Shown: piece after piece, positions 5,344 through 44,544 of the stretch
How the letters are laid out: every line of letters starts with the position of its first letter
How positions within the stretch are numbered: the stretch's first letter is position 1
Source of the DNA: Parcubacteria group bacterium
GTDB lineage: Bacteria > Patescibacteriota > Patescibacteriia > UBA2169
Assembly: GCA_016181765.1 (NCBI GenBank)
Contig: JACOYR010000004.1
Coordinates: 201,853-265,852, forward strand
Reading direction: 5' to 3'
Length of the DNA: 64,000 nucleotides
Translations under genes and position numbers: made by a program
Notes under the pieces: generated by a model
Databases searched by the model: none
What the model was told of the DNA's origin: nothing
What the model saw: only the letters and a program-made list of their open reading frames with translations

Positions 5344-6132
5344 TCACAGCGGGCTCTGAATCGCGGCCAGAGCAGATCGCGCCACCTTGGTGTACACCTG
5401 CGTGGTGGTAAGCCGCGCGTGGCCCAAGAGCTCCTGGATGTACCGAATGTCGGTGCCGTTCTCCAGCAAGTGCGTGGCAAACGAATGGCGCAAGCTGTGG
5501 CAGCTTGCCTGTTTTTTGATGCCCGAATCTTTGAGCGCGTGGGCAAATATCTTTTGAGCCGACCGTTCAGTCAGCTTCCCGCCGCGGCTGCTTTCAAACA
5601 CAAAATCGCGTGCGTCTTTTTTTGCAACATACCGCGCAAGCGGCGCGCTGACTTTTTCAGAAAACAAGGTAACCCGGTCTTTCCCTCCTTTGCCGCCGCG
5701 AACCATCACGGCTTGGTTATCAAAATCCAAATCCCCCACCTTGAGATTCACGGCTTCGGAAACCCGCAACCCGGCCGAGTACATCATCCCGAGCAGGAGC
5801 TTGTGCTTGGCGCTTTTGATGGTTCCGAGCAATAACCGCACTTCTTGTTTGGAGAGCACCACCGGAAGTTTTTTTGATGATTTGGCGCGCGGAATGGAAA
5901 CAAAAAATCTCCGCTTGAGCACGGAGCCAAAGTAAAACTTAAGGGCGCTGTACACGGTATTGAGTGTTGACGCGGACTTTCCCGCGTCCGCGAGCGCTTC
6001 CAGATACTTTCGGACATCAGCCGTAGTGGTTGCCCGGGGGCCTTTGCCCGCCGAGCGCAAAAAGCCTTTGACGTTCGTTATATACGAACTTTGGGTCATT
6101 GGGCTAAACCCCCGCAGTTTCATCTCCTGCAC
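5344..6132 (-). CDS. tyrosine site-specific recombinase (XerC/XerD/IntI branch)
   Basis: The C-terminal catalytic motifs HSLRHSFATHLLENGTDIRYIQELLGH…TTQVYTKV are present. The segment KKLPVVLSKQEV…GLRVSEAVNLKVGDLDFDNQAVMVRGGKGGKDR resembles XerD and IntI. At 262 aa it lacks the IntI-specific insertion. It is divergent from the adjacent AT-rich island. Confidence 0.9.
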   Translation of the reverse strand: MQEMKLRGFSPMTQSSYITNVKGFLRSAGKGPRATTTADVRKYLEALADAGKSASTLNTVYSALKFYFGSVLKRRFFVSIPRAKSSKKLPVVLSKQEVRLLLGTIKSAKHKLLLGMMYSAGLRVSEAVNLKVGDLDFDNQAVMVRGGKGGKDRVTLFSEKVSAPLARYVAKKDARDFVFESSRGGKLTERSAQKIFAHALKDSGIKKQASCHSLRHSFATHLLENGTDIRYIQELLGHARLTTTQVYTKVARSALAAIQSPL

Positions 6133-6179
6133 GAATTTCTCAAAGCCTTCCGTAAAAACAACCAGTTCGTATATAACTA

Positions 6180-6207
6180 GTTATAAGAAATTTAATTTGA
6201 AAGCCCT
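6180..6207. repeat. left copy of a 28-bp imperfect inverted repeat (gttataagaaatttaatttgaaagccct) flanking the deoxyribosyltransferase-like gene
   Basis: Its reverse complement pairs with 6633-6660 at 25 of 28 positions. Confidence 0.7.
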
Positions 6208-6237
6208 AAGAGGAATTAACAAGTAAATGCATGAAAT

Positions 6238-6630
6238 ATGAAAATAGTCATCTGCGGTTCTAGACGTTTCTTTGACGACATTCGCGACTTGGAACGCAAG
6301 TTGCGCGAGAACGGTCATATTGTCTTGGGACCCATACTCAACAGAAATAAATCTATCAGCGACCTGCCGAGTGATCTTAAAACATACGCTTTTTTAGGAT
6401 TGACGCTTCACCATTTTGAATTTATCCGCAAAGCCGACATCTGCTTCATGTACAACAAAGATGGTTATCTTGGCAACAGTGGTACTTTGGAGCTTGGTTT
6501 TGTGGTCGCCTGCGGTATTCCAATATACGCTCTGAATGAAGATAAAGACGAGGTTTGCAGGAATGTACTCTTTGACTTCGTGGTTAATGACATTGATGAA
6601 TTCGTTAAAATTGTTAATTCCAATAAATGA
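6238..6630 (+). CDS. nucleoside 2-deoxyribosyltransferase-like / SLOG-fold protein
   Basis: The 130-aa product starts MKIVICGS…, and the segment GYLGNSGTLELGFVVACGIPIYAL matches the catalytic-Glu region G.G.ELG(F/Y)A of the Nuc_deoxyrib_tr family. The gene is AT-rich (about 33% GC) and is bounded by inverted repeats. Confidence 0.65.
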   Translation: MKIVICGSRRFFDDIRDLERKLRENGHIVLGPILNRNKSISDLPSDLKTYAFLGLTLHHFEFIRKADICFMYNKDGYLGNSGTLELGFVVACGIPIYALNEDKDEVCRNVLFDFVVNDIDEFVKIVNSNK

Positions 6631-6632
6631 CA

Positions 6633-6660
6633 AGGGCTTTCAAATTAAACATCTTATAAC
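6633..6660. repeat. right copy of the 28-bp inverted repeat; it overlaps the start of palindromic element A copy 1
   Basis: The sequence agggctttcaaattaaacatcttataac is the reverse complement of the left copy at 6180-6207. Confidence 0.7.
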
Positions 6661-6839
6661 ACTGAATATGCGGTTCAAAAACATTGCCCATTAGATACGA
6701 TTGGTCGCAATGTTTTTTCACCCAAATGGCGCTTCTGATATCCGCGATTGATGTTGTCTATACTGTGCATCTGATGACCACACTCCTACTGATTAAGACG
6801 GCGCCACTTCGCATATTCAGGAACGTTGCGACGAAATAA
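6656..6839 (+). repeat. palindromic element A, copy 1 (about 184 bp): outer IR cactgaatatgcgg/cgcatattcag, inner perfect 11-bp hairpin aaaaacattgc/gcaatgttttt, 3' tail gaacgttgcgacgaaataa
   Basis: It is 5'-identical over about 68 bp to copy 2 at 11488, and it shares its architecture and 3' tail with copy 3 at 12786. Confidence 0.7.
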
Positions 6840-6980
6840 TTTTTTTTATAAGTTTTTCTCAATCGGCTTTTTAAGAAAAGGAATAAAATAAGTTTTTTAA
6901 GAATTAGGATTTTAGGAGGGGTAAAGCCAAGGTGGTTTTCTCCGCTTCGCTCCGAAAACGATTCATTAATTAATTTATGT

Positions 6981-7439
6981 ATGTCAAAAATTAATGTAGT
7001 TTATACGCCCAAAATTGATGAAGAAGAAAAAAGAATATTTGAAGAAGTATTCGGAAAAAATAAAGTAGTATTTGGGGAATATAAAATTAAAGGAATAACA
7101 TGGGGCGCATTTGACATTCAAATAATAATAGACGCCTTGAATGACCCCACCATAACAGCCTTACTACACGGCACAGAATTTGCGCGTTTAATTGCCGTAT
7201 TGGTTAAAAAATTATTTAGCAGAAATACTAAAAAAATAATGGATAATAAATCAAGACCCAGATACACGACTTTGGTTATAAGAAAAGAAACTAGTTCTGT
7301 CGTAGTATCAAATGTTAATCCCGGCAACAAAATTCTTATTTCTAAAATCACGGCTAATTTCGAGGAAATTAAAAAACAGTTTGAGAGCGGTGATGATAAA
7401 TATACAGATGAAAAACTTAATAACTACTTGGATAATTAA
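6981..7439 (+). CDS. hypothetical protein (152 aa)
   Basis: It is an AT-rich ORF in an operon-like arrangement with the next two ORFs, which are spaced 5 and 4 bp apart. Confidence 0.5.
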   Translation: MSKINVVYTPKIDEEEKRIFEEVFGKNKVVFGEYKIKGITWGAFDIQIIIDALNDPTITALLHGTEFARLIAVLVKKLFSRNTKKIMDNKSRPRYTTLVIRKETSSVVVSNVNPGNKILISKITANFEEIKKQFESGDDKYTDEKLNNYLDN

Positions 7440-7444
7440 AATTT

Positions 7445-7651
7445 ATGAAGTCAAAAATAATTAAAAGCAAACGACTAAAGGATCGCATAGTGGAGATAAT
7501 TGAGTATAAAGATGATTTTGGGAAAATTGTAAATTATTCTGTTATTAACGTAAACCATGGCGAAGGGGTCATTGCGGGTGCCGGTAAATTAGAAGAAAAT
7601 AATTTTTCTAATGAAGAGGAAGCAATGATATTTTTTAATAATCAAAATTAA
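7445..7651 (+). CDS. hypothetical small protein (68 aa)
   Basis: Its spacing to the neighbouring genes suggests translational coupling. Confidence 0.4.
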   Translation: MKSKIIKSKRLKDRIVEIIEYKDDFGKIVNYSVINVNHGEGVIAGAGKLEENNFSNEEEAMIFFNNQN

Positions 7652-7655
7652 ATCT

Positions 7656-10136
7656 ATGCAAAAACAGTTCACAATCTATTTTATTCTTATTTTTATTCTA
7701 GGATTAACTTCGCTTAATTTTATTCAAAAAGTAAAAGCGTCAGATATTCCTGTGCCTATTGCCTACTGGAACCTTAACGACCAGGATGCTATAAATGCTG
7801 GCTTAGCATCCGATCAAATGGGTAACTATAATATGCAAATAGTTGACGGTACTTGGGATAGTAATGCATATGATGGCGGTTCTGTTGTTTTTAGTTGCAT
7901 GAAAACTGATTATAATGCTTGCGGGGCAAAAATCAGTAACGCCCTGCCAGAATTGAGCAAGTTTACTATATTATACAGAGTAAAATTAAAAGGTCCTATT
8001 AACAATACTCTTCGCCGCATCGTTGATTCAACGGGAGGATTTCATACATATTTTGACGGAAACTCAATCATGATTTCAGGAAACGGCATGAAAAATAGTA
8101 TTGATGAACCAATCAGTGTCAGCGAAAATTGGTATCATTTCGCAGTTGTTTACGACAATGCCGATGGTTATTATTTTTATAAAAATGGAAATTTAGCTGA
8201 ATACTCTACGACATCAGGCAATAAGATAAGCAGTGGGATCTGGTCCTTTGGGTATGGTGGTGGTGTCCAGGGCGATGCGAGTGCAAATATTATCCAACTT
8301 GATGAAATAAAAATATATGACACAGCACTTACCTCAGATCAAATTTTAGAAGAAAATAATTACAACGAAATAAGGTGTAAAGCAGATATTTACCAATATG
8401 GTGAGTGGGGCTCATGTCAGCCTGACGGCACAAAAACCAGAACTGCGACCAAAACGTTTAACTGTCCTTATACAAATAATGAACCAGAAAATGCAACAAC
8501 AAGTTGTAGCTATATTCCGCCTACTTGTACTTCTTGGCAATACTCAAACTGGTCGCAGTGTTCGAATAGTGGCCAACAAATAAGAACTATTATTTCATCT
8601 TCGCCAAGTGGCTGTGTTGATGGAAAGCCAATTTTAAATCAAAGTTGTAATTATACTCCTGTTTGTACAGTCAATAATTGGTCGTGTGATAATTGGTCGG
8701 GTTGTTCTTCTGGTGGAACTCAAACCAGATCCTGTAATAAAATTTCAAATTGCGAGGGTGGAATTTCCGCCCCGACCACCTCTCAATCCTGTACCTACAC
8801 TCCGACTTGTTCGGCAGACACTTGGCAGTGTGAAAATTGGGGGTCTTGCTCGCCACAAGGAATACAGGCAAGAAGCTGTACCAGAACCTATGACTGCCCG
8901 TCCGCTGAAACAGCGGCCCCGGCGACATCGCAATATTGCGTAGCCCCAAACCAGCCCAAACAACAATCACCGACCGAGGATTTGGGCATAGTAAACCAAA
9001 GCACAATTATAAAATCCACAGTTAAGCTTGTTTGTCCCGTAAATAGCACCACCGCAAGCCAAGGTTCGGGCACAGTTATCAATTCAACCGGCTTAATTTT
9101 GACCAATAAACACGTCATTGACGATACAGCCGGATGTCTAGTCGGGTTTATTGATGATTATGGCGATGAACCGTATTTTGGCGACAGGCAGATCGCTGAT
9201 ATTTACAAAATATCCAGCGATGCTGATGTTGCTGTTTTGAAATTGAGAAATCCAAGCAACAAGCCGCTAACCTCGATCAGTATTTCTCAAAGCAACAGCA
9301 ACAACATCAAATTGGGAGAAATACTTACTACCTACGGCTATCCGGCAAAATTCGGCACAAAAATAACCTACACCAGCGGCGATTTTAGCGGCGTGGACGG
9401 CAATTATCTGAAAACAACCGCTATTATTGAGCACGGCAATTCCGGCGGAGGCGCGTATTTAAAAAATGGCGCGTTTATCGGCATTCCAACCGCCGTAGTA
9501 AAAGGCAGTTTAAACTCCTTGGGCTATTTACTGTCAATCAATAAAGTAAACAGCTGGCTTAATAATTCTATAGCATATAACTACAATAATAATGACAATA
9601 ATTATTCGCGGGTTTCGGCTTTGTTAGAAGATATAAATTTGAACACTCTTGATTCTTTGGGCCTGTTCTTGCCTGGAGATGAGAAAAATCTTAAAACCCA
9701 AACAGAAAGCCAAAGCGTAATAGCCGAAGAAAAATTGTTGACCACCAAAATTGACAGCAGTTTATCAAGAAGAGTGAGTGGAAATATTCTGTTGCAGGTG
9801 GAAAAGAAAGGCGAAGGGTGGTATGTATATCCGGATAATAAAAAGAAGTATTATTTAGGCCGTCCGGCAGACGCTTTTAGCATTATGCGGAATTTGGGAT
9901 TGGGAATCAAACACAGCGAACTTAGCATTTATCTCAATTCAAAATTTCCCAGCAGATTATCCGGGAAAATATTATTGGATGTTGAGCAAAAAGGCGAAGC
10001 GTATTATATCAATCCAAACGACTTAAAGGGCTACTACCTTAGCAAGCCAGCAGACGCATTCAGAATTATGCGAGAACTCGGGCTGGGAATCACTAATGAT
10101 GACATAAGGAAAATTGACGTTGGTGAGACAGAATAA
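7656..10136 (+). CDS. secreted multidomain protein with a signal peptide, a LamG/ConA-like lectin domain, three thrombospondin-type-1-like Cys repeats, a trypsin-like serine protease domain and two C-terminal repeats of about 60 aa
   Basis: The N-terminus has the hydrophobic segment MQKQFTIYFILIFILGLTSLNF. The LamG-like region reads NWYHFAVVYD…LDEIKIYDTAL. The WxxWxxCSxxGxQxR repeats are CTSWQYSNWSQCSNSGQQIR, WSCDNWSGCSSGGTQTR and WQCENWGSCSPQGIQAR. The TNKHVI segment (His) and the GNSGGGAY segment (Ser) indicate a trypsin-like protease. Tandem repeats at the C-terminus read GKILLDVEQKGEAYYINP… and SGNILLQVEKKGEGWYVYP…. Confidence 0.8.
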   Translation: MQKQFTIYFILIFILGLTSLNFIQKVKASDIPVPIAYWNLNDQDAINAGLASDQMGNYNMQIVDGTWDSNAYDGGSVVFSCMKTDYNACGAKISNALPELSKFTILYRVKLKGPINNTLRRIVDSTGGFHTYFDGNSIMISGNGMKNSIDEPISVSENWYHFAVVYDNADGYYFYKNGNLAEYSTTSGNKISSGIWSFGYGGGVQGDASANIIQLDEIKIYDTALTSDQILEENNYNEIRCKADIYQYGEWGSCQPDGTKTRTATKTFNCPYTNNEPENATTSCSYIPPTCTSWQYSNWSQCSNSGQQIRTIISSSPSGCVDGKPILNQSCNYTPVCTVNNWSCDNWSGCSSGGTQTRSCNKISNCEGGISAPTTSQSCTYTPTCSADTWQCENWGSCSPQGIQARSCTRTYDCPSAETAAPATSQYCVAPNQPKQQSPTEDLGIVNQSTIIKSTVKLVCPVNSTTASQGSGTVINSTGLILTNKHVIDDTAGCLVGFIDDYGDEPYFGDRQIADIYKISSDADVAVLKLRNPSNKPLTSISISQSNSNNIKLGEILTTYGYPAKFGTKITYTSGDFSGVDGNYLKTTAIIEHGNSGGGAYLKNGAFIGIPTAVVKGSLNSLGYLLSINKVNSWLNNSIAYNYNNNDNNYSRVSALLEDINLNTLDSLGLFLPGDEKNLKTQTESQSVIAEEKLLTTKIDSSLSRRVSGNILLQVEKKGEGWYVYPDNKKKYYLGRPADAFSIMRNLGLGIKHSELSIYLNSKFPSRLSGKILLDVEQKGEAYYINPNDLKGYYLSKPADAFRIMRELGLGITNDDIRKIDVGETE

Positions 10137-10259
10137 AAATATCCAATTATTTGTAGACATCTTTCTTGTCTTATTCTAATATATATGCTATTATTAGAAT
10201 AAGCTAATTCTTTATTATAACCGTTAGAATAACGAAACTCCTTATTCTAACCGCAAAAT

Positions 10260-11360
10260 ATGGCTAACCAACCCTTTAATCCGCCCGCCTTACCGCCAAA
10301 AATCAACTATGAGCCACTGATTGACCATATTATCAGGGCCCACCGCGCCCTGGCCGGGCTTGATTCCCTGCTTGGCGCTTTACCCAACCCGAACCTATTG
10401 GGCCGAACCATGCAAACCAAAGAAGCGGTGGAAAGTTCAAAAATAGAGGGTACCCAAGCCACGATCAACGAAGTCTTGGCGTATGAAGCGGAACCGGGGA
10501 AAAAGGAAGATGCCAAGAAAAAACAAGACATAAACGAGATTATAAATTACCGCCAGGCTTTGGACTTGGGAGTAAAAAGTTTAACCACACTGCCGTTGTC
10601 CGAAAACTTGATTAAAAAACTGCATGCCACCCTGCTTAAATCCGGCCGGGGCGCCAATAAAGCGCCGGGTGAATTTAGAAAAATACAGGTGTACATCGGC
10701 AAGCCCGGAGCCACTATTTCCGAAGCGTCATATATTCCCCCGGCTGCTAACGGCATAATCTCCTTATTCAGCAATTTGGAAAAATACCTTAATAGCGGCG
10801 ATGAAAAAGACAAATTAGTGCAAATCGCGGTGGCCCATTATCAATTTGAAGCTATCCACCCTTTTTTGGACGGCAACGGCCGGGTCGGCCGGCTGATTAT
10901 CTCTCTGTTTTTGTACGAGAAAAAATTATTATCGCACCCGTTTCTGTATTTGAGCGAATTTTTTGAGGAGCACCGCCGGGATTATTACGAATTATTGAGC
11001 AATGTGAGCGCCAAGCAGGATTGGGAAAGCTGGATAAAATTTTTCTTGAACGCCCTGGCCACCCAAGCCCAAAAAGCCGAAGCCATTGGCAAGGAAATTC
11101 TGAAACTCCACAGCGGCTATAAAGAAAAAATTATAGCCATCAACTCCATGTATGCCAATAACTTATTGGACGCGATTTTTATTCGGCCGATTTTTACCAC
11201 TGCCAGCCTGCGGCCGCACGTTAAAATGAAAAATACCCAGACATTTTTCAGCTTAGTGGCAAAATTCGCCGCCGCCGGAATTTTAGAAGAAGCCAACCCC
11301 AAAAAAAGACGCAATAAAGTTTATGTCTTCACGGAATTAATGAAGCTTTTGAATAAATAA
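10260..11360 (+). CDS. fic: Fic family AMPylase (Fido) with an N-terminal inhibitory motif
   Basis: The canonical HPFLDGNGRVGR motif is present. The upstream SSKIEG matches the (S/T)xxxE(G/N) auto-inhibition motif of class II Fic proteins. Confidence 0.9.
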   Translation: MANQPFNPPALPPKINYEPLIDHIIRAHRALAGLDSLLGALPNPNLLGRTMQTKEAVESSKIEGTQATINEVLAYEAEPGKKEDAKKKQDINEIINYRQALDLGVKSLTTLPLSENLIKKLHATLLKSGRGANKAPGEFRKIQVYIGKPGATISEASYIPPAANGIISLFSNLEKYLNSGDEKDKLVQIAVAHYQFEAIHPFLDGNGRVGRLIISLFLYEKKLLSHPFLYLSEFFEEHRRDYYELLSNVSAKQDWESWIKFFLNALATQAQKAEAIGKEILKLHSGYKEKIIAINSMYANNLLDAIFIRPIFTTASLRPHVKMKNTQTFFSLVAKFAAAGILEEANPKKRRNKVYVFTELMKLLNK

Positions 11361-11447
11361 AGAGTTTTGGGCAAAGGGCATTCACCCCTAACCCCTCTGC
11401 CCCTTGCCCAAAACAAAAAATAAATTTAAGATTTAAGAAAAAAAAGC
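11361..11447 (+). repeat. repeat B, copy 1: terminator-like hairpin ttttgggcaaagggca…tgccccttgcccaaaa plus an AT-rich tail, directly after fic
   Basis: It is about 90% identical over its first 53 bp to 12658-12745. Confidence 0.7.
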
Positions 11448-11487
11448 CTACCAAAAGACATCAAAAAAAATATTTTTAGAACAGCGT

Positions 11488-11605
11488 ATAACACTGAATA
11501 TGCGGTTCAAAAACATTGCCCCTTAGATATGATCGGTCGCAATGTTTTTTCACCCATATTTGCCTCCGCTACGCTTTGGCAAACATCGCATATTCAGGAA
11601 CGTTG
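11488..11605 (+). repeat. palindromic element A, copy 2
   Basis: The 5' 68 bp are near-identical to copy 1, and it ends with tcgcatattcaggaacgttg. Confidence 0.7.
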
Positions 11606-11943
11606 TAACCGCTCAACAAGACCGTAGAGACCAAAACGATTATTTCCATCAGCAAATAAACATATTCGTAAAAAATTTGAGTGACGGCAATGAGGTGCAA
11701 ATCCTGTCCACCCAAGGAGATGTAAGAGAAACGGGATGGGTTAGTGCAAGCTTTAGTCCTGACAGCAAATACGGCGTATACAATCTAAACAAGCAGCTCT
11801 GGATTCTTGACGCTGAAACTGGAGAAAAAACACAGCTTACAACCGAGTTGAGAGAGTACCGCGAACCTCGTTGGTCTACGGACGGAAATAAAATTATCTA
11901 TACTACGGGTGAAGAAGTAAGATTAATTAAACTGACATTTTGA
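11542..11943 (+). pseudogene. fragment of a TolB-like PD40 beta-propeller protein (probable gene remnant)
   Basis: The translation …SDGNEVQILSTQGDVRE…FSPDSKYGVYN…REPRWSTDGNKIIYTT contains PD40-type repeats. There are only about 100 aa of the domain, and the ORF's 5' end runs into repeat element A, so no credible start exists. Confidence 0.35.
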
Positions 11944-12032
11944 TTCTATCAAATACATATATTTCCCTTGAACCTGCCCATGAGGCGGGCAGACACCCCA
12001 TTAGTTCCCCTCCGCCCTTTACCTATCAATTC

Positions 12033-12563
12033 ATGAAACCAACACCAAACAACTTCGCCTACATTGACGCCGCCAACTTGCACCGGGGCGTTATTCAGCT
12101 TGGCTGGCAATTGGATTACAAGAAATTCCGGATCTGGCTGAAAGAGAAATACGGCGTTAGCCAGGCCTATCTTTTCATCGGTCTGGTGCCCAAGCACAAA
12201 GATTTATACACCAGCTTGCAGGAAGCCGGCTTTACCCTTGTCTATAAAGAAATAACCTATGACGGCGAGGGCAAGGTCAAAGGAAATTGCGACGCTGATT
12301 TGGTGCTTAAAACCACCCGCGACGCTTACGAAAACTCGTTTGCGCAAGCGATTTTGGTTTCCAGCGACGGCGATTACGCCGGCTTGGTTAAATTTTTGCT
12401 GGAAAGAAACAAGTTCATGGGCATTATTTCCCCGTCAGTTTCGGCCAAATGTTCGGTGCTATTGAAACGGACCGGCGCGCGCATAGCGTACATCAATGAC
12501 CAGAGGTCCATATTGGAAATTACAAAAGGCGGCCAAAAAGAAAAAGCCCCCGGCCGGGACTAA
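12033..12563 (+). CDS. NYN-domain (LabA-like) putative ribonuclease
   Basis: Conserved acidic residues of the NYN fold are seen in FAYIDAANL…GNCDADLV…VSSDGDYAGLV. The ORF opens at 11940, but the Met at 12033 is the likely start. Confidence 0.8.
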   Translation: MKPTPNNFAYIDAANLHRGVIQLGWQLDYKKFRIWLKEKYGVSQAYLFIGLVPKHKDLYTSLQEAGFTLVYKEITYDGEGKVKGNCDADLVLKTTRDAYENSFAQAILVSSDGDYAGLVKFLLERNKFMGIISPSVSAKCSVLLKRTGARIAYINDQRSILEITKGGQKEKAPGRD

Positions 12564-12657
12564 CCCCGGCAAGGGTCTTTTTCGTAGTGATAAATACAGT
12601 ATAGCAGTTTGAGGCAAAAAGTCAATATAACTTATAAACAGCCCAAAAACAGACAAA

Positions 12658-12745
12658 GAGTTTTGGGCAAAGGGCATTCACCCCTAACCCCTCTGCCCTT
12701 TGCCTAAAACGGAAAAAACTTATTTTAAAATTTAAGAAAAAGCCG
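12658..12745 (+). repeat. repeat B, copy 2 (after the NYN gene)
   Basis: It carries the same hairpin as copy 1 with one compensating mismatch, and the same aaatttaagaaaaagcc tail. Confidence 0.7.
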
Positions 12746-12785
12746 ATTGAAGAAAAATTCAAAGAAAAAAAATTACATCGCGCAA

Positions 12786-12910
12786 CAGCGCATATGAGGT
12801 TCGGGAAAAAGCGATAATTTGATATAATCAAGGTGTCGCCTTTCCCCTCTCCCAAACCCGCCAAGGAGGCGGGCTTCTCATATGCGCGAACGTTCTGCGA
12901 AATAAAATAA
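12786..12910 (+). repeat. palindromic element A, copy 3 (diverged): outer IR gcgcatatgag/ctcatatgcgc, 3' tail gaacgttctgcgaaataaaataa
   Basis: Its architecture and conserved 3' tail match copies 1 and 2. Confidence 0.55.
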
Positions 12911-12926
12911 TTTTATTCAATTTTTT

Positions 12927-13183
12927 ATGAGTATAGAAAGACCTGAAAACATACAAGAACAGCTTCGGGAAATTTTTTTAAAGGAAGAATATACCTGTCG
13001 CCGGAACAATTAAAAATCATTGATTTCTTGGACCAGATGGGGCGCATTGTCGTTAAAGACGCGGAAGAGATATTGTCCTGCCCGCGGCGCACGGCGCAAT
13101 TGCACTTGCAAAAATTAAAAAAGATTAAAATGATTAAAGCCACCGGCAAAGGCAAATCCACCGCCTATATCGCCAATAAATAA
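12927..13183 (+). pseudogene. winged-HTH regulator (…LSPEQLKIIDFLDQMGRIVVKDAEEILSCPRRTAQLHLQKLKKIKMIKATGKGKSTAYIANK) split by a frameshift in a T7 tract
   Basis: The ATG at 12927 gives MSIERPENIQEQLREIFLKEEYT and then a stop. Frame +2 (read relative to that ATG) continues from 12947 as an HTH with the typical GKG(K/R)ST.Y ending. The two frames join at aatttttttaaagg. Confidence 0.4.
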
Positions 13184-13213
13184 TAAGGGTGTTTAAGGCG
13201 CGCGGTATGTATG

Positions 13214-27647: not shown

Positions 27648-28085
27648 CTAGGCGTGCTTGTCTAAAAATGTGCTGTAAGAATCGGCAAACTGCTGAAAAA
27701 CATCAGGGGCTTTCTGCAAATACGCATACACTTTTTTAAAATCAACATCTGCATACTCATGAATAAGCAAATTTCTGAATTTTGTCATATCCTTATTCTC
27801 ATTGATTATTTGTTGCGGAACAACTCCGACTTCTCCCAAAAGGCGCACAATATCAGAGTAATCTTCGGCTGATTTTTGAAAAACAGTACTCAAAATATGA
27901 TTTCCCGCATCAGTTATAATCGCAATCCCAATCGCTAAATCAAACATAGCCGCCCCGTTCAACTTTTTGTCAGCGATAAAATCCTCTTGAGTTTGCGCCT
28001 CTTCGGCATATTCCCGCAAATCACTGATGAGATCTTGCAATTTCATCAATTTTTTTTGAATTGATTTTCTATCTAGTGGGGACAT
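27648..28085 (-). CDS. hepT: HepT-like (DUF86) toxin
   Basis: The Rx4HxY motif RNLLIHEY is present. The gene is AT-rich and overlaps the 3' end of the MNT gene. The start is uncertain (ORF to 28196; Met at 28085 or 28046). Confidence 0.75.
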   Translation of the reverse strand: MSPLDRKSIQKKLMKLQDLISDLREYAEEAQTQEDFIADKKLNGAAMFDLAIGIAIITDAGNHILSTVFQKSAEDYSDIVRLLGEVGVVPQQIINENKDMTKFRNLLIHEYADVDFKKVYAYLQKAPDVFQQFADSYSTFLDKHA

Positions 28086-28536
28086 ATATTTCCGGTTTGC
28101 CAAATGTTTTATGAACCAAATGTCGGCGCATGATTTGATACTGTGTTTCGCGGATGTGGTTTGTGTCTTCGTATTCTCTCCTGATTTTTTGCTCAATCAT
28201 AAATCGCTGTTCCTCATCAGTAACATACAGCGGCTTTGCGTAAAACACGGCGCGATGTTTCAACAGCGGGCTCTTGCATGTTTCCAAATTAACCACATCA
28301 ACGCGGTCAATCTTAAACACACTCCCAATATCGGACATCATGCTCAACTCCAAATCAAACTGCTTGTCTTTTGGTACTTTCTTGGAAAAAACCACGGCAA
28401 TGTCCACATCCGACAAAGGACCGACATTACCCCTGGCGCGCGAGCCAAACAAATACGCCAGCGCAACCTTGCGCTTTTCAAAAATCGGGGCCAGTTTTTG
28501 CTTGATTTCTTCAATGGTTTTGGTCATATAATCCAA
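28069..28536 (-). CDS. mnt: MNT (minimal nucleotidyltransferase) antitoxin
   Basis: The GSxxxG…DxD motif GSRARGNVGPLSDVDIAV is present. It lies upstream of, and overlaps, hepT. Confidence 0.8.
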   Translation of the reverse strand: MDYMTKTIEEIKQKLAPIFEKRKVALAYLFGSRARGNVGPLSDVDIAVVFSKKVPKDKQFDLELSMMSDIGSVFKIDRVDVVNLETCKSPLLKHRAVFYAKPLYVTDEEQRFMIEQKIRREYEDTNHIRETQYQIMRRHLVHKTFGKPEIYVPTR

Positions 28537-28731: not shown

Positions 28732-28781
28732 GAGGTGTTGCGATGATTGCTTAAGCCCTTGAGCCATTATCGCAACACCTC
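28732..28781 (+). repeat. leader hairpin module, copy 1 (18-bp arms gaggtgttgcgatgattg / ccattatcgcaacacctc) in the 5'UTR
   Basis: The same architecture, with covarying arm sequence, is found at 29267-29322 and 30471-30528. Confidence 0.7.
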
Positions 28782-29153: not shown

Positions 29154-29322
29154 GGCAGTCGGACGAACTCAATGCAACCAATGCAACGAGTTTCGTCCGA
29201 CTGCCACCTTTCCCTGCCCTCAACCAAAGTTGAGGTTAGAGAAAAGATTAAAACCGCTCTTTAATTGGAAGGTGTTGCTATAATGGCTTAAAGTCATTTG
29301 AGAGATTATAGCAACATCTTCC
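29154..29322 (+). repeat. intergenic module, copy 2: perfect 17-bp hairpin ggcagtcggacgaactc…gagtttcgtccgactgcc, a small hairpin ctcaac…gttgag, and the long palindrome gaaggtgttgctataat…attatagcaacatcttcc
   Basis: It is near-identical to 30367-30528. There is no U-run after the first hairpin. Confidence 0.75.
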
Positions 29323-30366: not shown

Positions 30367-30528
30367 GGCAGTCGGACGAACTCAAACCAACGAGTTTCGT
30401 CCGACTGCCACTATTCCCTGCCCTCAACGAAAGTTGAGGTTAGAGAAAAGATTAAAACCGCTCTTTTATCCGAAGGTGTTGCTATAATGACTTAACAAAT
30501 TGTTTGAGAGATTATAGCAACACCTTCG
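30367..30528 (+). repeat. intergenic module, copy 3 (same two hairpins plus the palindrome cgaaggtgttgctataat…attatagcaacaccttcg)
   Basis: It is a direct repeat of copy 2 and is preceded by a C10 homopolymer at 30327-30336. Confidence 0.75.
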
Positions 30529-30564: not shown

Positions 30565-31158
30565 ATGTACCGATTCCGCTTCATCCTCGCGCTCGTGGCC
30601 GCCATGGCCATCGCAGTCGTGGCCTGCAGAGACAAGGCCGTGACCACGCTCAACGACATCGTCACCGACACGGTGATTGAGGTCGCCGTTGCCTCCCTCG
30701 CCCAGGACATCAAGGCGGGAGACGCGGGAAACTGGTCGTACGCCGACTCGTACGGCCCGACCTGGACCGCGAACACAAAGGCCCGGCACGCAATCTTCGC
30801 CGATCACCTCGGTGAGGATTGGTTCGACCTCGTGTACGACAACAAGACCGACTACCGGGAGCGGGCTATGCGCATCGCCCGCGAATCCCTGGACACGCCC
30901 GAGGAGCTGTGGGCCGCGTACCTTCGCCACAAGGCGAAGGTCATCGCCGAGATCCGAAAGCACGGCATCCAGGACGATGTCGTCAGATACTCAACCGCCG
31001 CCCTGCCCTACTTCTCGCCGCCGGGCGGCGAAGAGCTCACCGACCCCCACGGCGACCACGGAGCCAAGGAGTGGGCCGAACGTCGGCGAACCGAAGGCGG
31101 CGACGCCCTAGTCGTTGCCTGGGGCGAGGTCATCGCAGATCTCGCCAGTTCACTGTAG
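30565..31158 (+). CDS. lipoprotein (lipobox AVVAC), 197 aa, hypothetical
   Basis: The ATG has AAGGAGA upstream, and a signal peptide is present. Confidence 0.7.
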   Translation: MYRFRFILALVAAMAIAVVACRDKAVTTLNDIVTDTVIEVAVASLAQDIKAGDAGNWSYADSYGPTWTANTKARHAIFADHLGEDWFDLVYDNKTDYRERAMRIARESLDTPEELWAAYLRHKAKVIAEIRKHGIQDDVVRYSTAALPYFSPPGGEELTDPHGDHGAKEWAERRRTEGGDALVVAWGEVIADLASSL

Positions 31159-31188: not shown

Positions 31189-31236
31189 GGCCCGCTGCCA
31201 AGCTAGAAGTTATAGCAAGGCAGCGGGTCTTTTTTT
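31189..31236 (+). terminator. rho-independent terminator (stem ggcccgctgcc/ggcagcgggtc, 19-nt loop, T7 run). Its loop-to-T-run part is duplicated at 32384-32422
   Basis: The structure was read from the sequence. Confidence 0.75.
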
Positions 31237-31246
31237 ATGCGCGGGC

Positions 31247-32335
31247 TTATTTCACCGCATAATTTTTCGCGGCAAACACGTACTGCTCTATGAAGATAGC
31301 CTTAAATGGAATAATTGAATTAACCTCGTAAAACACGAGGGTCGCTTCGCGGTAGTCTTTCTCCTTTACGCTCCGATAGGATAGAGGCGCGCAGTTGTGC
31401 GCCAGCAATATCGCGTTTGCCATAATGCGCGCGGTGCGCTTATTGCCGTCATTAAACGGCTGAATGTAGCTGATGCCGAGCAAGGCCAAGAGGGCTTTGG
31501 CATAGGGGGTTTTCGCCCTTGCCATGGCGGCCGCCAGCGCCTCTACCGCCTCTCTAATCTGATGCGCGTTGTCCAGCGGCCGATACTTGGAACCGGTTAC
31601 GCCGACCGGTTTTTGGCGCAATCCCGCGCCCACGCTTAAATCTTTCACTACCATGCCATGCAGTTGTTCAAGATTAGGGCGCGTCAGAACGCGAAACTCT
31701 TTCTTATGTTCGTACACAAACTCAAACGCGTCCTTGTGATTGAGAATCATGCGGGCTTCTTTTTTATCATGCCCAAGAGCTTCCTTGCGCTCTAAAATAA
31801 GCTTCTCCGTGTCAAGAAGCGTATACGTATTCCCCTCAATCTTTGATGATTTCCAGGACAGTTCTATGATGAGCCGTTCTAATTCTTTCTTTTGAATGGC
31901 CCGCGGTAACCGCGCCGTCCGCGCATGATATTCGTCGGTTGCCTTTTCAAGAGCGGCTTGTTCGGCCGGAGTGAAGATATCGGAGAGGAACGACGGCAGC
32001 AGATCAAAATTAAAACGCGCGAGCCCAAAGCGCTCGTCCGGTTCCGTGGCGCAGTAACGGTTCGCGTCCACCTCGCTCCAGATGCGCCCTAAAACGCTGA
32101 TGCCGTACGCGCGCGACCGGCCGCGGCCAAAAGCGGCCAAAAGCCCCGCCGCGGCCATGCGGGATAGTTCTCGCTTAATGGTTACCAGCGAGGTTTCTTG
32201 GCCTTCTCTGGCCAGGCGGCTGTGAACCTCTGAAGAACTTATGAAATCTTGGCGTAGAAATAAATCCAGTATTTTTTGCTGCTTTGAACTGATTATGGTC
32301 ATAATCGTATCATTTATACTAATTAATCGTATCAA
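31247..32335 (-). CDS. HTH-Fic family protein with a degenerate Fic motif (QPFNDGNKRTAR instead of HPFx[D/E]GNGR)
   Basis: An N-terminal winged HTH is followed by a Fic fold. The catalytic His is replaced by Gln and the second Gly by Lys. Confidence 0.75.
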   Translation of the reverse strand: MIRLISINDTIMTIISSKQQKILDLFLRQDFISSSEVHSRLAREGQETSLVTIKRELSRMAAAGLLAAFGRGRSRAYGISVLGRIWSEVDANRYCATEPDERFGLARFNFDLLPSFLSDIFTPAEQAALEKATDEYHARTARLPRAIQKKELERLIIELSWKSSKIEGNTYTLLDTEKLILERKEALGHDKKEARMILNHKDAFEFVYEHKKEFRVLTRPNLEQLHGMVVKDLSVGAGLRQKPVGVTGSKYRPLDNAHQIREAVEALAAAMARAKTPYAKALLALLGISYIQPFNDGNKRTARIMANAILLAHNCAPLSYRSVKEKDYREATLVFYEVNSIIPFKAIFIEQYVFAAKNYAVK

Positions 32336-32383
32336 AATGATACGATTATGTCAAACATATCGCCCGTAACCACTCACAATGGT

Positions 32384-32422
32384 AAGCTAGAAGTTATAGC
32401 AAGGTAGCGGGCCATTTTTTTT
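32384..32422 (+). repeat. direct repeat of 31200-31236 (aagctagaagttatagcaagg[c/t]agcggg…ttttttt) lacking the left stem arm
   Basis: About 34 of 37 positions are identical. Together with 31200-31236 it brackets the HTH-Fic gene. Confidence 0.7.
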
Positions 32423-32473
32423 GACTAAAATAGCTTGTAGTGTTAATCTAGTAGTATAGAGAATCCAATACAT

Positions 32474-32680
32474 ATGGAAACAGCAACAATGCCTAAAAAA
32501 ATAAGCTCCGCATCATTACACGAGCTTAAACCGTTTATTGTGCAGACAATTTCCGAAGTCTTGAACGACCCTGATTTTGGTTTAGAGCTAAGCGATCGGG
32601 CGCAGGCAAGGCTGCGGCAATCCAGAGAATCTTCGGATAAAACAATCTCGTTCAATGATGTCAAAAGAAAGTATCATTAA
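32474..32680 (+). CDS. putative antitoxin (68 aa) of the ParE-like toxin
   Basis: It is a small ORF 7 bp upstream of a ParE/RelE-family gene, in an AT-rich islet. The family is not recognised. Confidence 0.5.
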   Translation: METATMPKKISSASLHELKPFIVQTISEVLNDPDFGLELSDRAQARLRQSRESSDKTISFNDVKRKYH

Positions 32681-32686
32681 ACCCAT

Positions 32687-32956
32687 ATGGGGGAATGGGA
32701 GTTGGAATTTTCCGTTGCGGCCGAGGATGACCTCGCCGCGCTTGATAACGAACTGCGGCAGAGAATCATCAATAAGCTTGATTGGTTTTTGGAAAATTTT
32801 GATTCGCTTTCTCCTGAATCATTAACCGGCGAGTACAGGGAATTTTATAAATTGAGAGCGGGCCAGTGGAGAATATTCTATAAGGTCAACTGGCAACAAA
32901 AGACAATCACGGTCCACTATATTGACCCGAGAGACAAAGCGTACAGGAAAAGATAG
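32687..32956 (+). CDS. ParE/RelE-superfamily type II toxin
   Basis: The C-terminus …LRAGQWRIFYKVNWQQKTITVHYIDPRDKAY is characteristic of RelE/ParE. Confidence 0.75.
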   Translation: MGEWELEFSVAAEDDLAALDNELRQRIINKLDWFLENFDSLSPESLTGEYREFYKLRAGQWRIFYKVNWQQKTITVHYIDPRDKAYRKR

Positions 32957-33022
32957 CGAGTGATGCGCACGCGGAAAACAACGCCATATTTTTATGCCGT
33001 TTTTTTATTCGCCGCCGTTTTT

Positions 33023-33051
33023 TTGACAATTCCGTGTTTTTGTAGTAATAC
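33023..33051 (+). promoter_or_regulatory. candidate promoter TTGACA-17-TAATAC
   Basis: The + strand reads tttTTGACAattccgtgtttttgtagTAATACaaag. It lies upstream of the 78-aa ORF and STAS operon. Confidence 0.4.
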
Positions 33052-43638: not shown

Positions 43639-43885
43639 CACCGCGGGCGCCGCGCCAACACTGGACTGACCCCCCTCCCCCGAAGCCCGACTGGACTCAC
43701 GTCCGCCGGGCTTCTTTATTTTTGTGTGAATGGCCCTATTGCTTAATCTTCCTTATAAACTCCTCGGGCGCAACAACAGTTGTAGGGCTCTCACTCGCGC
43801 TTGCAACAAGGTAGGGTGTATTGTTGTATTCTTCGTACATTATTGCTATAATGCAATTATTGATAACTCCTTACCTTTCAAACCT

Positions 43886-44167
43886 ATGAATAACGATGAA
43901 GAACTAATTAAAAAAGCCGATATTCAGAGGATAGCAGAAGAAGGGGCGAAGATTTACGACCAGATTAAGGTCAATTATGACCCCAAAGAAAGGGGCAAGT
44001 TTTTGGCTATTGATATTGATAGCAAAAAGGCATATCTCGGCAACACAAGTGCTGAAGCGTTGGAGCTGGCAAGACAAAATCATCCCAATAAGGTCTTTTA
44101 TGTTGTGAAGATAGGATTTGATGTTGCCGAAACAATGGCGAAAACATTTACTGACAGCTTTAAGTAA
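43886..44167 (+). CDS. hypothetical small protein (94 aa)
   Basis: It lies in an AT-rich islet, and the Met at 43886 is the likely start. It is paired with the downstream aspartic-protease-like gene. Confidence 0.45.
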   Translation: MNNDEELIKKADIQRIAEEGAKIYDQIKVNYDPKERGKFLAIDIDSKKAYLGNTSAEALELARQNHPNKVFYVVKIGFDVAETMAKTFTDSFK

Positions 44168-44175
44168 TTTGTAAA

Positions 44176-44544
44176 ATGATTAGCGGCGTATTTGTAGAAA
44201 ACATACCCTTAATAAAAGTTGTAGTGGCTTGGGGGCAATCAGTGCAAGCCCCTTTTGTTATTTTGGACACTGGTTTTACTGGTGATTTTCAAGTAACACC
44301 CAAGATAGCAGGAGAACTCGGTCTCCAAGTTGCTGGTGTTACAAAAACACAAATTGCCAATGGCGATGTTATTGAAGTTCCCGTAGCTCTCGCAGTTGCG
44401 GCGATGGAAGGGGCGGTAAATTACATTCAAGTTTTAATATCTGAAAGTATGCCGTTAGCTGGTATCAGCTTTTTGTCTAAATTTGGCTATAAGGCAAGTA
44501 TAGATTGTAAATACAGAACTGTGGCATTGGAGAGAATGATATAG
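44176..44544 (+). CDS. retropepsin-like (clan AA) aspartic peptidase domain protein
   Basis: The ILDTGFTGDF segment carries a D-T-G active-site signature typical of A2 retropepsin-like proteases. The product is 122 aa. Confidence 0.6.
   Translation: MISGVFVENIPLIKVVVAWGQSVQAPFVILDTGFTGDFQVTPKIAGELGLQVAGVTKTQIANGDVIEVPVALAVAAMEGAVNYIQVLISESMPLAGISFLSKFGYKASIDCKYRTVALERMI

Follow-up and report, generated by a model that had tools for sequence, protein, structure and literature searches.

A terminator hairpin located behind a lipoprotein gene of a Parcubacteria group bacterium may, with about an even chance in our judgement, serve as a recombination site that is reused by small self-contained addiction or defence cassettes. 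The stretch of DNA analysed here, hereafter referred to as the window, comprises 64,000 nucleotides of contig JACOYR010000004.1. In it, a single gene, coding for a protein made of a winged helix-turn-helix (wHTH) domain and a Fic domain, lies between two direct copies of part of the hairpin. The place is framed by conserved flanks, gyrB and lipoprotein genes on one side and a Na/Ca exchanger gene and pheT on the other. The hairpin occupies a fixed chromosomal place; one genome has a single copy of it, two others have it in duplicate with a different cargo in between, and each time the upstream lipoprotein gene retains an intact terminator. The features of the locus are as follows.

30565 to 31158, plus strand: predicted lipoprotein gene, 197 amino acids, with a signal peptide and the lipobox VVAC.
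31189 to 31236, plus strand: intact intrinsic-terminator hairpin and T7, between the convergent lipoprotein and Fic genes.
31200 to 31239, plus strand: repeat copy 1, attL-like, composed of loop region, right arm and T-run.
31247 to 32302, minus strand: wHTH-Fic gene, 351 amino acids, the sole gene in the repeat-bounded interval.
32302 to 32354, minus strand: Fic promoter and putative operator, with the -35 box TTGACA at 32349-32354 and the -10 box TACGAT at 32326-32331.
32355 to 32383, no strand: 29-bp spacer of unassigned origin from the Fic promoter to copy 2, sitting where a left arm would be.
32384 to 32423, plus strand: repeat copy 2, attR-like, composed of loop, right arm and T8, with no left arm.

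The first-pass annotation of this DNA had reported a direct repeat around one gene. That repeat is real: a repeat search gives two copies of 40 nt (31200-31239 and 32384-32423) with an identity of 36/40 (90%) and a spacing of 1184 bp, of which the second lacks the left arm. Copy 1 corresponds to the inner loop region, the right arm and the T-run of a strong terminator hairpin, GGCCCGCTGCC-AA-GCTA-GAAGTTA-TAGC-AA-GGCAGCGGGTC, which is followed by TTTTTTT. The hairpin (31189-31229) has an 11-bp outer stem and an inner GCTA/TAGC stem, and it begins 30 nt past the stop codon of the lipoprotein gene. Its predicted RNA fold has an energy of -32.4 kcal/mol (z = -5.25), and none of 200 shuffled sequences was equally stable. 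With a GC-rich stem-loop, a U-run and a gene upstream, copy 1 has the attributes of an intrinsic (rho-independent) terminator. A simple terminator scanner overlooked it because its apical part exceeds the loop limit of 3-8 nt. The core of the repeat consists of inverted arms, CCAAGCTA and TAGCAAGG, flanking a 7-nt spacer, a layout seen in the sites of tyrosine recombinases.

Copy 2 is located in the divergent promoter region between the Fic gene and a ParDE operon. It has no complementary left arm and folds less stably (-17.2 kcal/mol, z = -1.7). An insertion would have been called into question if copy 2 were a conserved terminator of a minus-strand transcript, as the first-pass annotation had pointed out; this was not borne out, as the minus strand presents an A-run there, followed by a weak fold. 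The 35 nt to the left of copy 2 were compared with all left arms and left flanks of the hairpins described below and gave nothing significant (best p ~0.07, with L017B), and a decayed left arm at copy 2 was thus rejected. An extension of the repeat past 40 nt was rejected as well. The observed scores were reached by 199 of 1000 shuffles for the left flanks and by 914 of 1000 for the right flanks, so that the similarity of the two copies ends at the 40-nt boundaries. Within the repeat, the right parts of the copies differ at three positions: C/T, GGGTC/GGGCC and the base before the T-run.

That two unrelated terminators resemble each other by chance, or that an assembly artefact joined two strains, is in our view highly improbable. 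The 28-mer AAGCTAGAAGTTATAGCAAGGYAGCGGG (one ambiguity) has only two sites in 64 kb when up to three mismatches are allowed, and it was matched in none of 100 shuffles. The side of copy 2 is confirmed at 100% identity on the independent contigs L001-L004 and L007. What speaks for an artefact is found at copy 1, where the Logan contigs L001, L002 and L003, which come from three samples and match the window at 100% identity for 4-6.8 kb, have a common end at 31250, adjacent to the stop codon of Fic. This common end implies a second sequence variant left of 31250 in the population; the 31-mer at 31250 is unique in the window. Copy 1, on the other hand, has diagnostic bases of its own, including the base that completes the stem, and it lies no more than 20 nt from the Fic stop codon, so that bridging k-mers must exist in the reads. 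Moreover, the double arrangement recurs in L017-L020, in four other data sets.

Syntenic contigs were reached through homologues of the lipoprotein, and three states of one locus can be distinguished among them and the window: one hairpin without cargo (L016), two hairpins around an MNT-HepT pair (L017-L020 and L031) and one and a half hairpins around Fic (the window). L016 has the orthologous lipoprotein gene, one hairpin, 85 bp, the convergent Na/Ca exchanger gene and pheT, and no Fic, ParDE, STAS or 332-aa gene. Its hairpin reads GGCCCGCATAC-TAAGCT-TTTG-AGCAAG-GTATGCGGGCC followed by a T-run. The order in L017 is gyrB, HepT, MNT, two small genes, lipoprotein, hairpin A, MNT, HepT, hairpin B, a 361-aa gene, Na/Ca exchanger and pheT; L018-L020 and L031, from four other data sets, are arranged in the same way. 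The cargo of L017 was recognised by its domains (MNT Polbeta, E 4.6e-12; HepT, E 4.6e-18). Hairpins A and B are both complete, are 879 bp apart and can be aligned over ~60 nt. The contigs L017 and L031 (CAYIMZ010000002.1, GCA_964364695.1) are titled 'uncultured Gammaproteobacteria bacterium', and the contig is syntenic with the Parcubacteria window at 74-80% DNA identity; this label is probably wrong. A more distant lipoprotein homologue, on L114, was rejected as a carrier of the hairpin: its terminator is unrelated, and the hairpin is therefore confined to a sub-lineage.

The single hairpin of L016 combines the outer sides of the two hairpins of L017. Its left side, from the lipoprotein gene through the hairpin, is similar to that of hairpin A (448-1400 to 5366-6320), while the hairpin with its right flank is similar to that of hairpin B (1345-1426 to 7140-7225, 77% identity), with a right-flank score reached in 0 of 2000 shuffles. 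As L016 thus looks like the left side of A joined to the right side of B, it fits the relation of an attB to an attL/attR pair. Furthermore, the right flank of window copy 2 can be aligned to those of L017B and L016 up to 32431, and at the three positions that distinguish the right parts of the window copies, the derived state is that of copy 1, while copy 2 has the bases of L016 and L017B. The structure is kept in all four full hairpins (window copy 1, L016, L017A and L017B): one base pair has changed in a compensatory way, and in the window both arms have undergone a paired deletion. Both window copies have a 1-nt deletion in the right arm that is absent from L016 and L017, for which the left arm compensates in copy 1. 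Given this shared deletion, the window duplication would have occurred after the lineages split and independently of that in L017, unless 40 nt were gene-converted; judging from the alignments, the two duplications are probably independent events.

Under the reading of the hairpin as a reused recombination site, the incoming DNA would have carried the wHTH-Fic gene together with a related, non-identical hairpin loop, right arm and T-run. A crossover between this segment and the resident hairpin, located in the 21-nt core AAGCTAGAAGTTATAGCAAGG that both share, would have left an intact lipoprotein terminator (copy 1, attL-like) and a half site beyond the cargo (copy 2, attR-like). Because the cassette encodes no recombinase, the activity would have come in trans, from a host tyrosine recombinase, such as the XerA-type enzyme encoded 25 kb away, or from short-homology recombination. 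Site-specific exchange would be expected to give an empty-site junction ...CCCGCTGCCAAGCTAGAAGTTATAGCAAGG[C/T]AGCGGG...TTTTTTTTGACTAAAATAGC and a circle junction ...CACTCACAATGGTAAGCTAGAAGTTATAGCAAGG...TTTTTTTATGCGCGGGCTTATTTCAC. Of the attributes of an attL/attR pair, the direct repeats are present and L016 has a single copy, though perhaps through deletion; the recombinase is not in the cassette and an attP was not found in the collections searched. The earlier suggestion of an insertion scar thus stands in part: it gains from the single hairpin of L016 and from the double hairpin of L017 around another cargo, and it lacks an integrase, an attP and flanking repeats at four other Fic loci. 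An empty site of the predicted kind, with a single 37-mer directly before the ParE operon, did not turn up; what comes after the hairpin in L016 is the Na/Ca exchanger gene, and ParDE, STAS and the 332-aa gene are absent.

Several observations weigh against recombination at a reused site. The junction of copy 1 and Fic is a branch point of the assembly graph without independent confirmation, because the three Logan contigs stop at 31250. The two copies in L017 differ in the presumed spacer (GCAACT and GTAGTTA), which a simple, recent exchange by a tyrosine recombinase is not expected to leave. The duplicated segment ends just after the T-run in both the window and L017, but its left boundary differs: in L017 it comprises the whole hairpin and ~4 nt (CCAC), and in the window it runs from the loop onward. 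Instead of a site that was never occupied, L016 could represent the outcome of a deletion; its loop is 5 nt shorter than that of every other copy. Since only three genome types carry the hairpin, the statistics of the asymmetry are weak. No flanking repeats were found around the Fic homologues of four other genomes (L009-L012). The genome and metagenome collections and the 120 viral matches listed yielded no attP, be it a free copy of the hairpin or one carried by an element. Lastly, open reading frames and Pfam searches reveal no recombinase in or beside the cassette, and none is tied to the hairpin.

Two other explanations account for some of these observations, and we consider each of them unlikely, though worth weighing. 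In the first, the repeat is a replication error: the palindrome would stall the fork, and the nascent strand would switch by microhomology to the Fic DNA and then return upstream in the hairpin, re-copying loop, right arm and T-run with no site-specific enzyme. A cassette without recombinase, the failure to find an attP in the collections searched and the unlike left boundaries in the window and L017 all agree with such an event. Microhomology would have been available as well, because the 3' end of the Fic gene (31245-31277) resembles the ancestral right flank in L016, CTTTTTCAAAAATTTTTCGCAAAC, with a score reached in 5 of 2000 shuffles, and the patch AATTTTTCGC is common to the Fic 3' ends of L011 and L012; the p-value of this resemblance is, however, uncorrected for many comparisons. 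For random switches, it would be much coincidence that two cargos in two lineages use the same hairpin and both end after the T-run. Furthermore, the asymmetric differences from the outgroups, with the left copy derived and the right copy ancestral on their right sides, fit a recombination of non-identical sites better.

The second explanation, to which we give similarly modest weight, is an old slot with two terminators. A gene would have been duplicated ancestrally together with its terminator, the cargo between the terminators would have been replaced in each lineage, and L016 would have lost the interval by recombination between the copies. The tandem lipoprotein genes, with their 113-nt repeats, make unequal crossing-over likely, and L016 reads equally well as a deletion hybrid. 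In addition, the loop of L017B is near-identical to both window copies (20/21), while that of L017A differs, as expected if B and copy 2 are orthologous. The 3' end of the lipoprotein gene also matches copy 2's left flank weakly (14/16, one gap), but not significantly (199 of 1000 shuffles). This history would moreover require a gene conversion of 40 nt only to account for the lineage-specific right-arm deletion in both window copies, and in neither lineage is a remnant of a lipoprotein gene left between the copies.

The searches bearing on a reused recombination site covered further hairpins, recombinases and RNA families. As the first-pass annotation had proposed for its 37-mer, the repeat was searched for elsewhere: the window holds two copies only, and no further one was found in the collections searched. 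The exact 21-mer core AAGCTAGAAGTTATAGCAAGG is absent from genome_contigs and metagenome_contigs. A degenerate hairpin pattern gave 20 genome matches, about the number estimated by chance, and 73 metagenome matches; a complementary left arm was present in the L017 contig only, and in viral_contigs it was present in none of the 120 matches listed. No other copy of the hairpin was found in the 64-kb window, in 16 kb of L017, in genome_contigs or in metagenome_contigs. A dispersed repeat of the REP or MITE type was rejected, as there are two copies in the 64 kb analysed of a 281-kb source contig and the relatives have the hairpin at this locus only. Rfam matches at E <= 1 consisted only of spurious microRNA-type hairpins at 28.5-33.5 kb, with nothing at 6-13.4 kb. 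A tRNA or tmRNA target was ruled out, since ARAGORN finds neither in the window. In the literature, we found no paper that covers, for such a case, insertion hotspots at hairpins or terminators with toxin-antitoxin cargo, or integrons in Patescibacteria.

One recombinase gene was recognised among the open reading frames scanned in the window, 25 kb from the cassette.

5344 to 6132, minus strand: XerA-type tyrosine recombinase, 262 amino acids (Pfam Phage_integrase, E 6.8e-43).

It matches the NCBIfam model NF040815 (recomb_XerA_Arch) with 229.8 bits, against a cut-off of 220, and it is a candidate trans-acting factor. A wider proposal is that CPR/Parcubacteria have a cassette-capture system not yet described, with the hairpin as its recombination site, in which recombinase-less toxin or defence cassettes would be exchanged between strains at terminator hairpins with the host XerA-type enzyme acting in trans; we regard this as a long shot. 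If true, it would amount to an integron-like platform without IntI or canonical attC, and the same XerA enzyme adjoins a low-GC same-strand array (6.2-13.2 kb).

The XerA-type gene borders a low-GC (31-46%) run of plus-strand genes (5344-13200) in which the genes are separated by repeated structured elements. In three of these, E1-E3 (~6655-6830, 11487-11607 and 12780-12897), the closing stem co-varies, CTGAATATGCG/CGCATATTCAG versus GCGCATATGAG/CTCATATGCGC. Two hairpins of 69 nt, H1 and H2, are 90% identical (11352-11420 and 12648-12716). The layout of this array is integron-like; canonical attC boxes are not evident by eye in the elements at 6-13 kb.

The cargo of the window is a Fic protein of 351 amino acids. 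Its start codon was placed at the ATG at 32302, and not at the TTG at 32335, because nearly all homologues are 351 amino acids long, as is P0001, an NCBI entry for a 'Fic family protein, Parcubacteria group bacterium' encoded on a 281-kb contig; the product has an exact match in P0001 and on Logan contigs. The Pfam Fic family (PF02661) matches with 50.3 bits, against a cut-off of 24 (E 4.6e-13), and there are weak winged-helix matches at residues 15-77. An AlphaFold model built on 37 homologues (pLDDT 88, pTM 0.89) predicts an N-terminal winged helix of the form H-E-H-H-E-E at residues 6-68, followed by the Fic core. Foldseek matches were FICD, 3cuc and 3eqx (E 1e-8 to 1e-5, TM scores ~0.55-0.6), and the modelled core agrees with those of FICD, BT_2513 and SoFic. 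Sequence score and predicted fold thus both place the protein in the Fic/Fido fold.

The Fic motif, QPFNDGNKRTAR, comprises residues 281-292 (Q281-PFNDGNKRTAR). When aligned to human FICD (HPFIDGNGRTSR), Q281 is located on the catalytic histidine and K288 on the second glycine of GNGR. The first-pass annotation had noted the glutamine in place of the histidine in this single wHTH-Fic gene, which the alignment bears out, and had called the protein degenerate. That term is misleading. Of the 120 closest homologues, which are 63-100% identical and belong mostly to Parcubacteria/Patescibacteria, 118 have QPFxDGNKRxxR, and Q...NKR is present in 117 of 150 representatives of 50%-identity clusters, down to ~30% identity; a histidine is found in none. 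Residues Q281, P282, F283, D285, G286, N287, K288, R289 and R292 are invariant in the alignment of homologues, and in the 50%-identity library the wHTH-Fic family is represented by no fewer than 286 clusters at E <= 1e-30. As it is invariant across a large conserved family, the glutamine at position 281 does not reflect local decay. The Gln-variant signature has previously been noted in silico as Doc 'clade D2', with the consensus Qx[F/Y]x[D/E][G/V]NKR (PMC4454073). QPFNDGNKR conforms to this consensus and the Fic cargo is, by its sequence, a Gln-variant of the Doc clade D2 type, clade identity being judged by the consensus and not by a phylogeny.

In addition, the protein has, from its sequence, the class II inhibitory motif (S/T)xxxE(G/N) on the N-terminal side of the core. 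This segment, S152-S-K-I-E156-G157, aligns with the inhibitory helix TVAIEGN of FICD and is invariant across the 37 homologues. A canonical AMPylating Fic, HxFx(D/E)GNGRxxR, was ruled out by the motif, given Q281 for the histidine and K288 for the second glycine. A kinase of the Doc type (P1 Doc) was also ruled out, as a glutamine stands in for the essential histidine despite the NKR and there is an extra wHTH domain; no Phd-like gene lies beside Fic in the interval, which holds a single gene. With its own winged helix and operator, this large, conserved family of Gln-variant Fic proteins is a good candidate for probing a Fic without histidine. A second Fic gene is located in the low-GC array (10260-11360, plus strand). 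It has Fic_N and Fic domains, the canonical motif HPFLDGNGRVGR and the inhibitory motif SSKIEGT, and the genome therefore carries a canonical Fic and a Gln-variant Fic.

The Fic gene has a sigma-70-type promoter, TTGACA-17-TACGAT, which scored 10/12 in a promoter scan. Three exact TGATACGATTA sites are found at 32338-32348 (inverted), 32324-32334 and 32302-32312, the last of which abuts the ATG; they are the sole occurrences in 64 kb, where 0.30 are expected. The repeat search also found a perfect 16-nt inverted repeat, I17, in the promoter region. In L009-L012, which encode proteins 78-83% identical to the window Fic, conservation of the DNA begins exactly at the -35 box and extends to the stop codon, and TGATACGATTA sites are located at the same positions, two of them exact in L011. 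The three-site architecture of promoter and operator is conserved upstream of the eight homologue loci examined. Homologues with 45% identity and the motif QPFNDGNKRTAR were also found on the IMG/VR predicted viral contigs L235 and L237 (~5830-5950), where the promoters have the same three-site architecture with an altered site sequence (TCTGCTCA / TGAGCAGAAT). This co-variation of site and protein supports autoregulation through the winged helix. As a predicted winged helix and repeated palindromic sites in its own promoter are the attributes of an autoregulated wHTH repressor, Fic is probably the repressor of its own promoter, acting by way of this helix. Of the earlier proposal of a non-catalytic regulator, the regulator half thus gains from the winged helix and the three exact operator sites, and the whole remains one possibility.

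Elsewhere, Fic homologues are found beside tRNA synthetase genes, or behind an operon of ribosomal protein genes, with a PIN gene and a methylase gene as neighbours. From these unrelated contexts, the Fic gene behaves as a mobile, self-contained accessory gene. In another Patescibacteria genome (L009, 9149-16086, and L010), a Gln-variant Fic stands at the edge of a defence island with RhuM-Fic, an NgoFVII-type restriction enzyme, a LexA-fused methylase, Vsr, a Y1 transposase and an OLD-family nuclease.

Beyond copy 2, the window has two further features of the slot.

32474 to 32956, plus strand: antitoxin-like open reading frame of 68 amino acids (32474-32680) and ParE toxin of 89 amino acids (32687-32956; Pfam ParE_toxin).
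33000 to 33027, plus strand: tentative, partial third echo of the repeat, T7 followed by ATTCGCCGCC, similar to 31230-31256, the T-run of copy 1 with its right flank.

The toxin matches ParE_toxin with an E value of 6.2e-08 (33.5 bits, against a cut-off of 23). The 68-aa frame, which has no family match, stops 6 nt ahead of the toxin start; with a ParE-fold toxin behind a small upstream gene, the pair has the make-up of a ParDE type II toxin-antitoxin system. ParDE is missing from the L016 and L017 loci and adds another addiction cassette to this variable slot. Between the lipoprotein and Na/Ca exchanger genes, the slot is hypervariable and is filled with genes of the addiction or defence type (Fic, ParDE, MNT-HepT). 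The segment 33000-33027 stands directly upstream of the promoter of an operon of a 78-aa gene, STAS and a 332-aa gene. Its local alignment score, 27, was reached by none of 1000 mononucleotide shuffles; the match is short and T-rich, and we regard it as no more than a lead. If it were an older, third echo of the repeat, as it may be, ParDE would be a separate insertion. The promoter that follows it resembles the promoter following hairpin B in L017.

On the other side of the slot, a tandem array of lipoprotein genes ends with the 197-aa one, whose terminator is the proposed insertion site. A large protein collection has only 10 homologues of this lipoprotein, 48-100% identical, and exact-protein look-ups gave no record for either this lipoprotein or gyrB. 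Its orthologues in the relatives are located at 747-1319 in L016 and 5661-6230 in L017. Ahead of each of the three high-GC (60-65%) genes of the array stand near-perfect 50-nt palindromes (28732-28781, 29267-29322 and 30471-30528), both arms of which hold TGTTGCTATAAT, extended -10-like, and a 113-nt direct repeat of 92% identity (29179-29291 and 30383-30495). These could be bidirectional promoters, operators or recombination sites. Closer to gyrB, the window (27648-28536) and L017 (3867-4485) both have a HepT/MNT pair at the same position. Their DNA is not alignable and the proteins differ in size (182/155 aa versus 117/98 aa), while the flanks are 78% identical; by this comparison, it is a second place with a swapped toxin-antitoxin cassette. 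A low-GC (39-41%) insert of two genes (43730-44544, plus strand), coding for 145 and 122 amino acids with no Pfam match, lies inside a core of 53-61% GC.

CPR/Patescibacteria have tiny genomes with few recognisable mobile elements, and the exchange of accessory genes among them is poorly understood. If the terminator hairpin is indeed reused, the present locus is a concrete case in which one such hairpin is the repeated entry point of addiction and defence cassettes and the host terminator is rebuilt with no travelling recombinase. Were an enzyme to be tied to the site, this would be a new route of cassette exchange; if not, the locus would be a clean natural hotspot of palindrome-driven insertion.

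Among known systems, the integration of elements at the 3' end of tRNA and tmRNA genes by tyrosine integrases is similar in that a partial copy of a structured target arrives, the target is rebuilt, a partial copy is left beyond the cargo and the cargos vary. Here, however, the target is an intrinsic terminator and the cargo is a single gene of 1.1 kb, and neither an integrase nor an attP-bearing element was found. Integron cassettes share with the present ones their size of one or two genes, the lack of a recombinase, the frequent toxin-antitoxin content, an imperfect palindrome as boundary and a fixed place of insertion. In contrast to attC sites, which measure ~57-141 nt and have a variable centre, the window hairpin has 41 nt and a conserved centre; there are only one or two copies and no array, and no intI or attI is adjacent. 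An attC identity of the hairpin was rejected, as RYYYAAC/GTTRRRY boxes are not seen by eye, the nearest sequence being GTTATAG.

Elements of the IMEX type and the pdif modules of Acinetobacter plasmids are also recombinase-less, often carry toxin-antitoxin genes and use short palindromic sites with the host Xer proteins in trans, and a XerA-type gene is present in the window. The sites flanking pdif modules are inverted, while the repeats of the window are direct. A dif site at the hairpin was rejected, since the cumulative GC skew shows no turn there. Class C group II introns resemble the present case in that the cargo starts a few bases past the T-run of a terminator and the hairpin appears to be the recognised feature. 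They differ in that the window cargo is an ordinary protein gene with neither intron RNA structure nor reverse transcriptase, and in that the target is duplicated here, which intron homing does not do.

The Fic protein itself can be compared with two groups. With the class II Fic AMPylases SoFic, FICD and BT_2513, it shares the inhibitory motif (S/T)xxxE(G/N), and SoFic is its best PADLOC match (8.5e-19). It differs from them by a glutamine for the catalytic histidine, GNKR for GNGR and a winged helix that is N-terminal and not C-terminal. With Doc clade D2, for which Khater and Mohanty (2015, PMC4454073) described 45 mostly single-domain proteins, it has in common the glutamine for the catalytic histidine and the lysine for the second glycine. 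The window family is distinguished from that clade by its predicted N-terminal winged helix, a class II-type inhibitory helix and a conserved architecture of promoter and operator.

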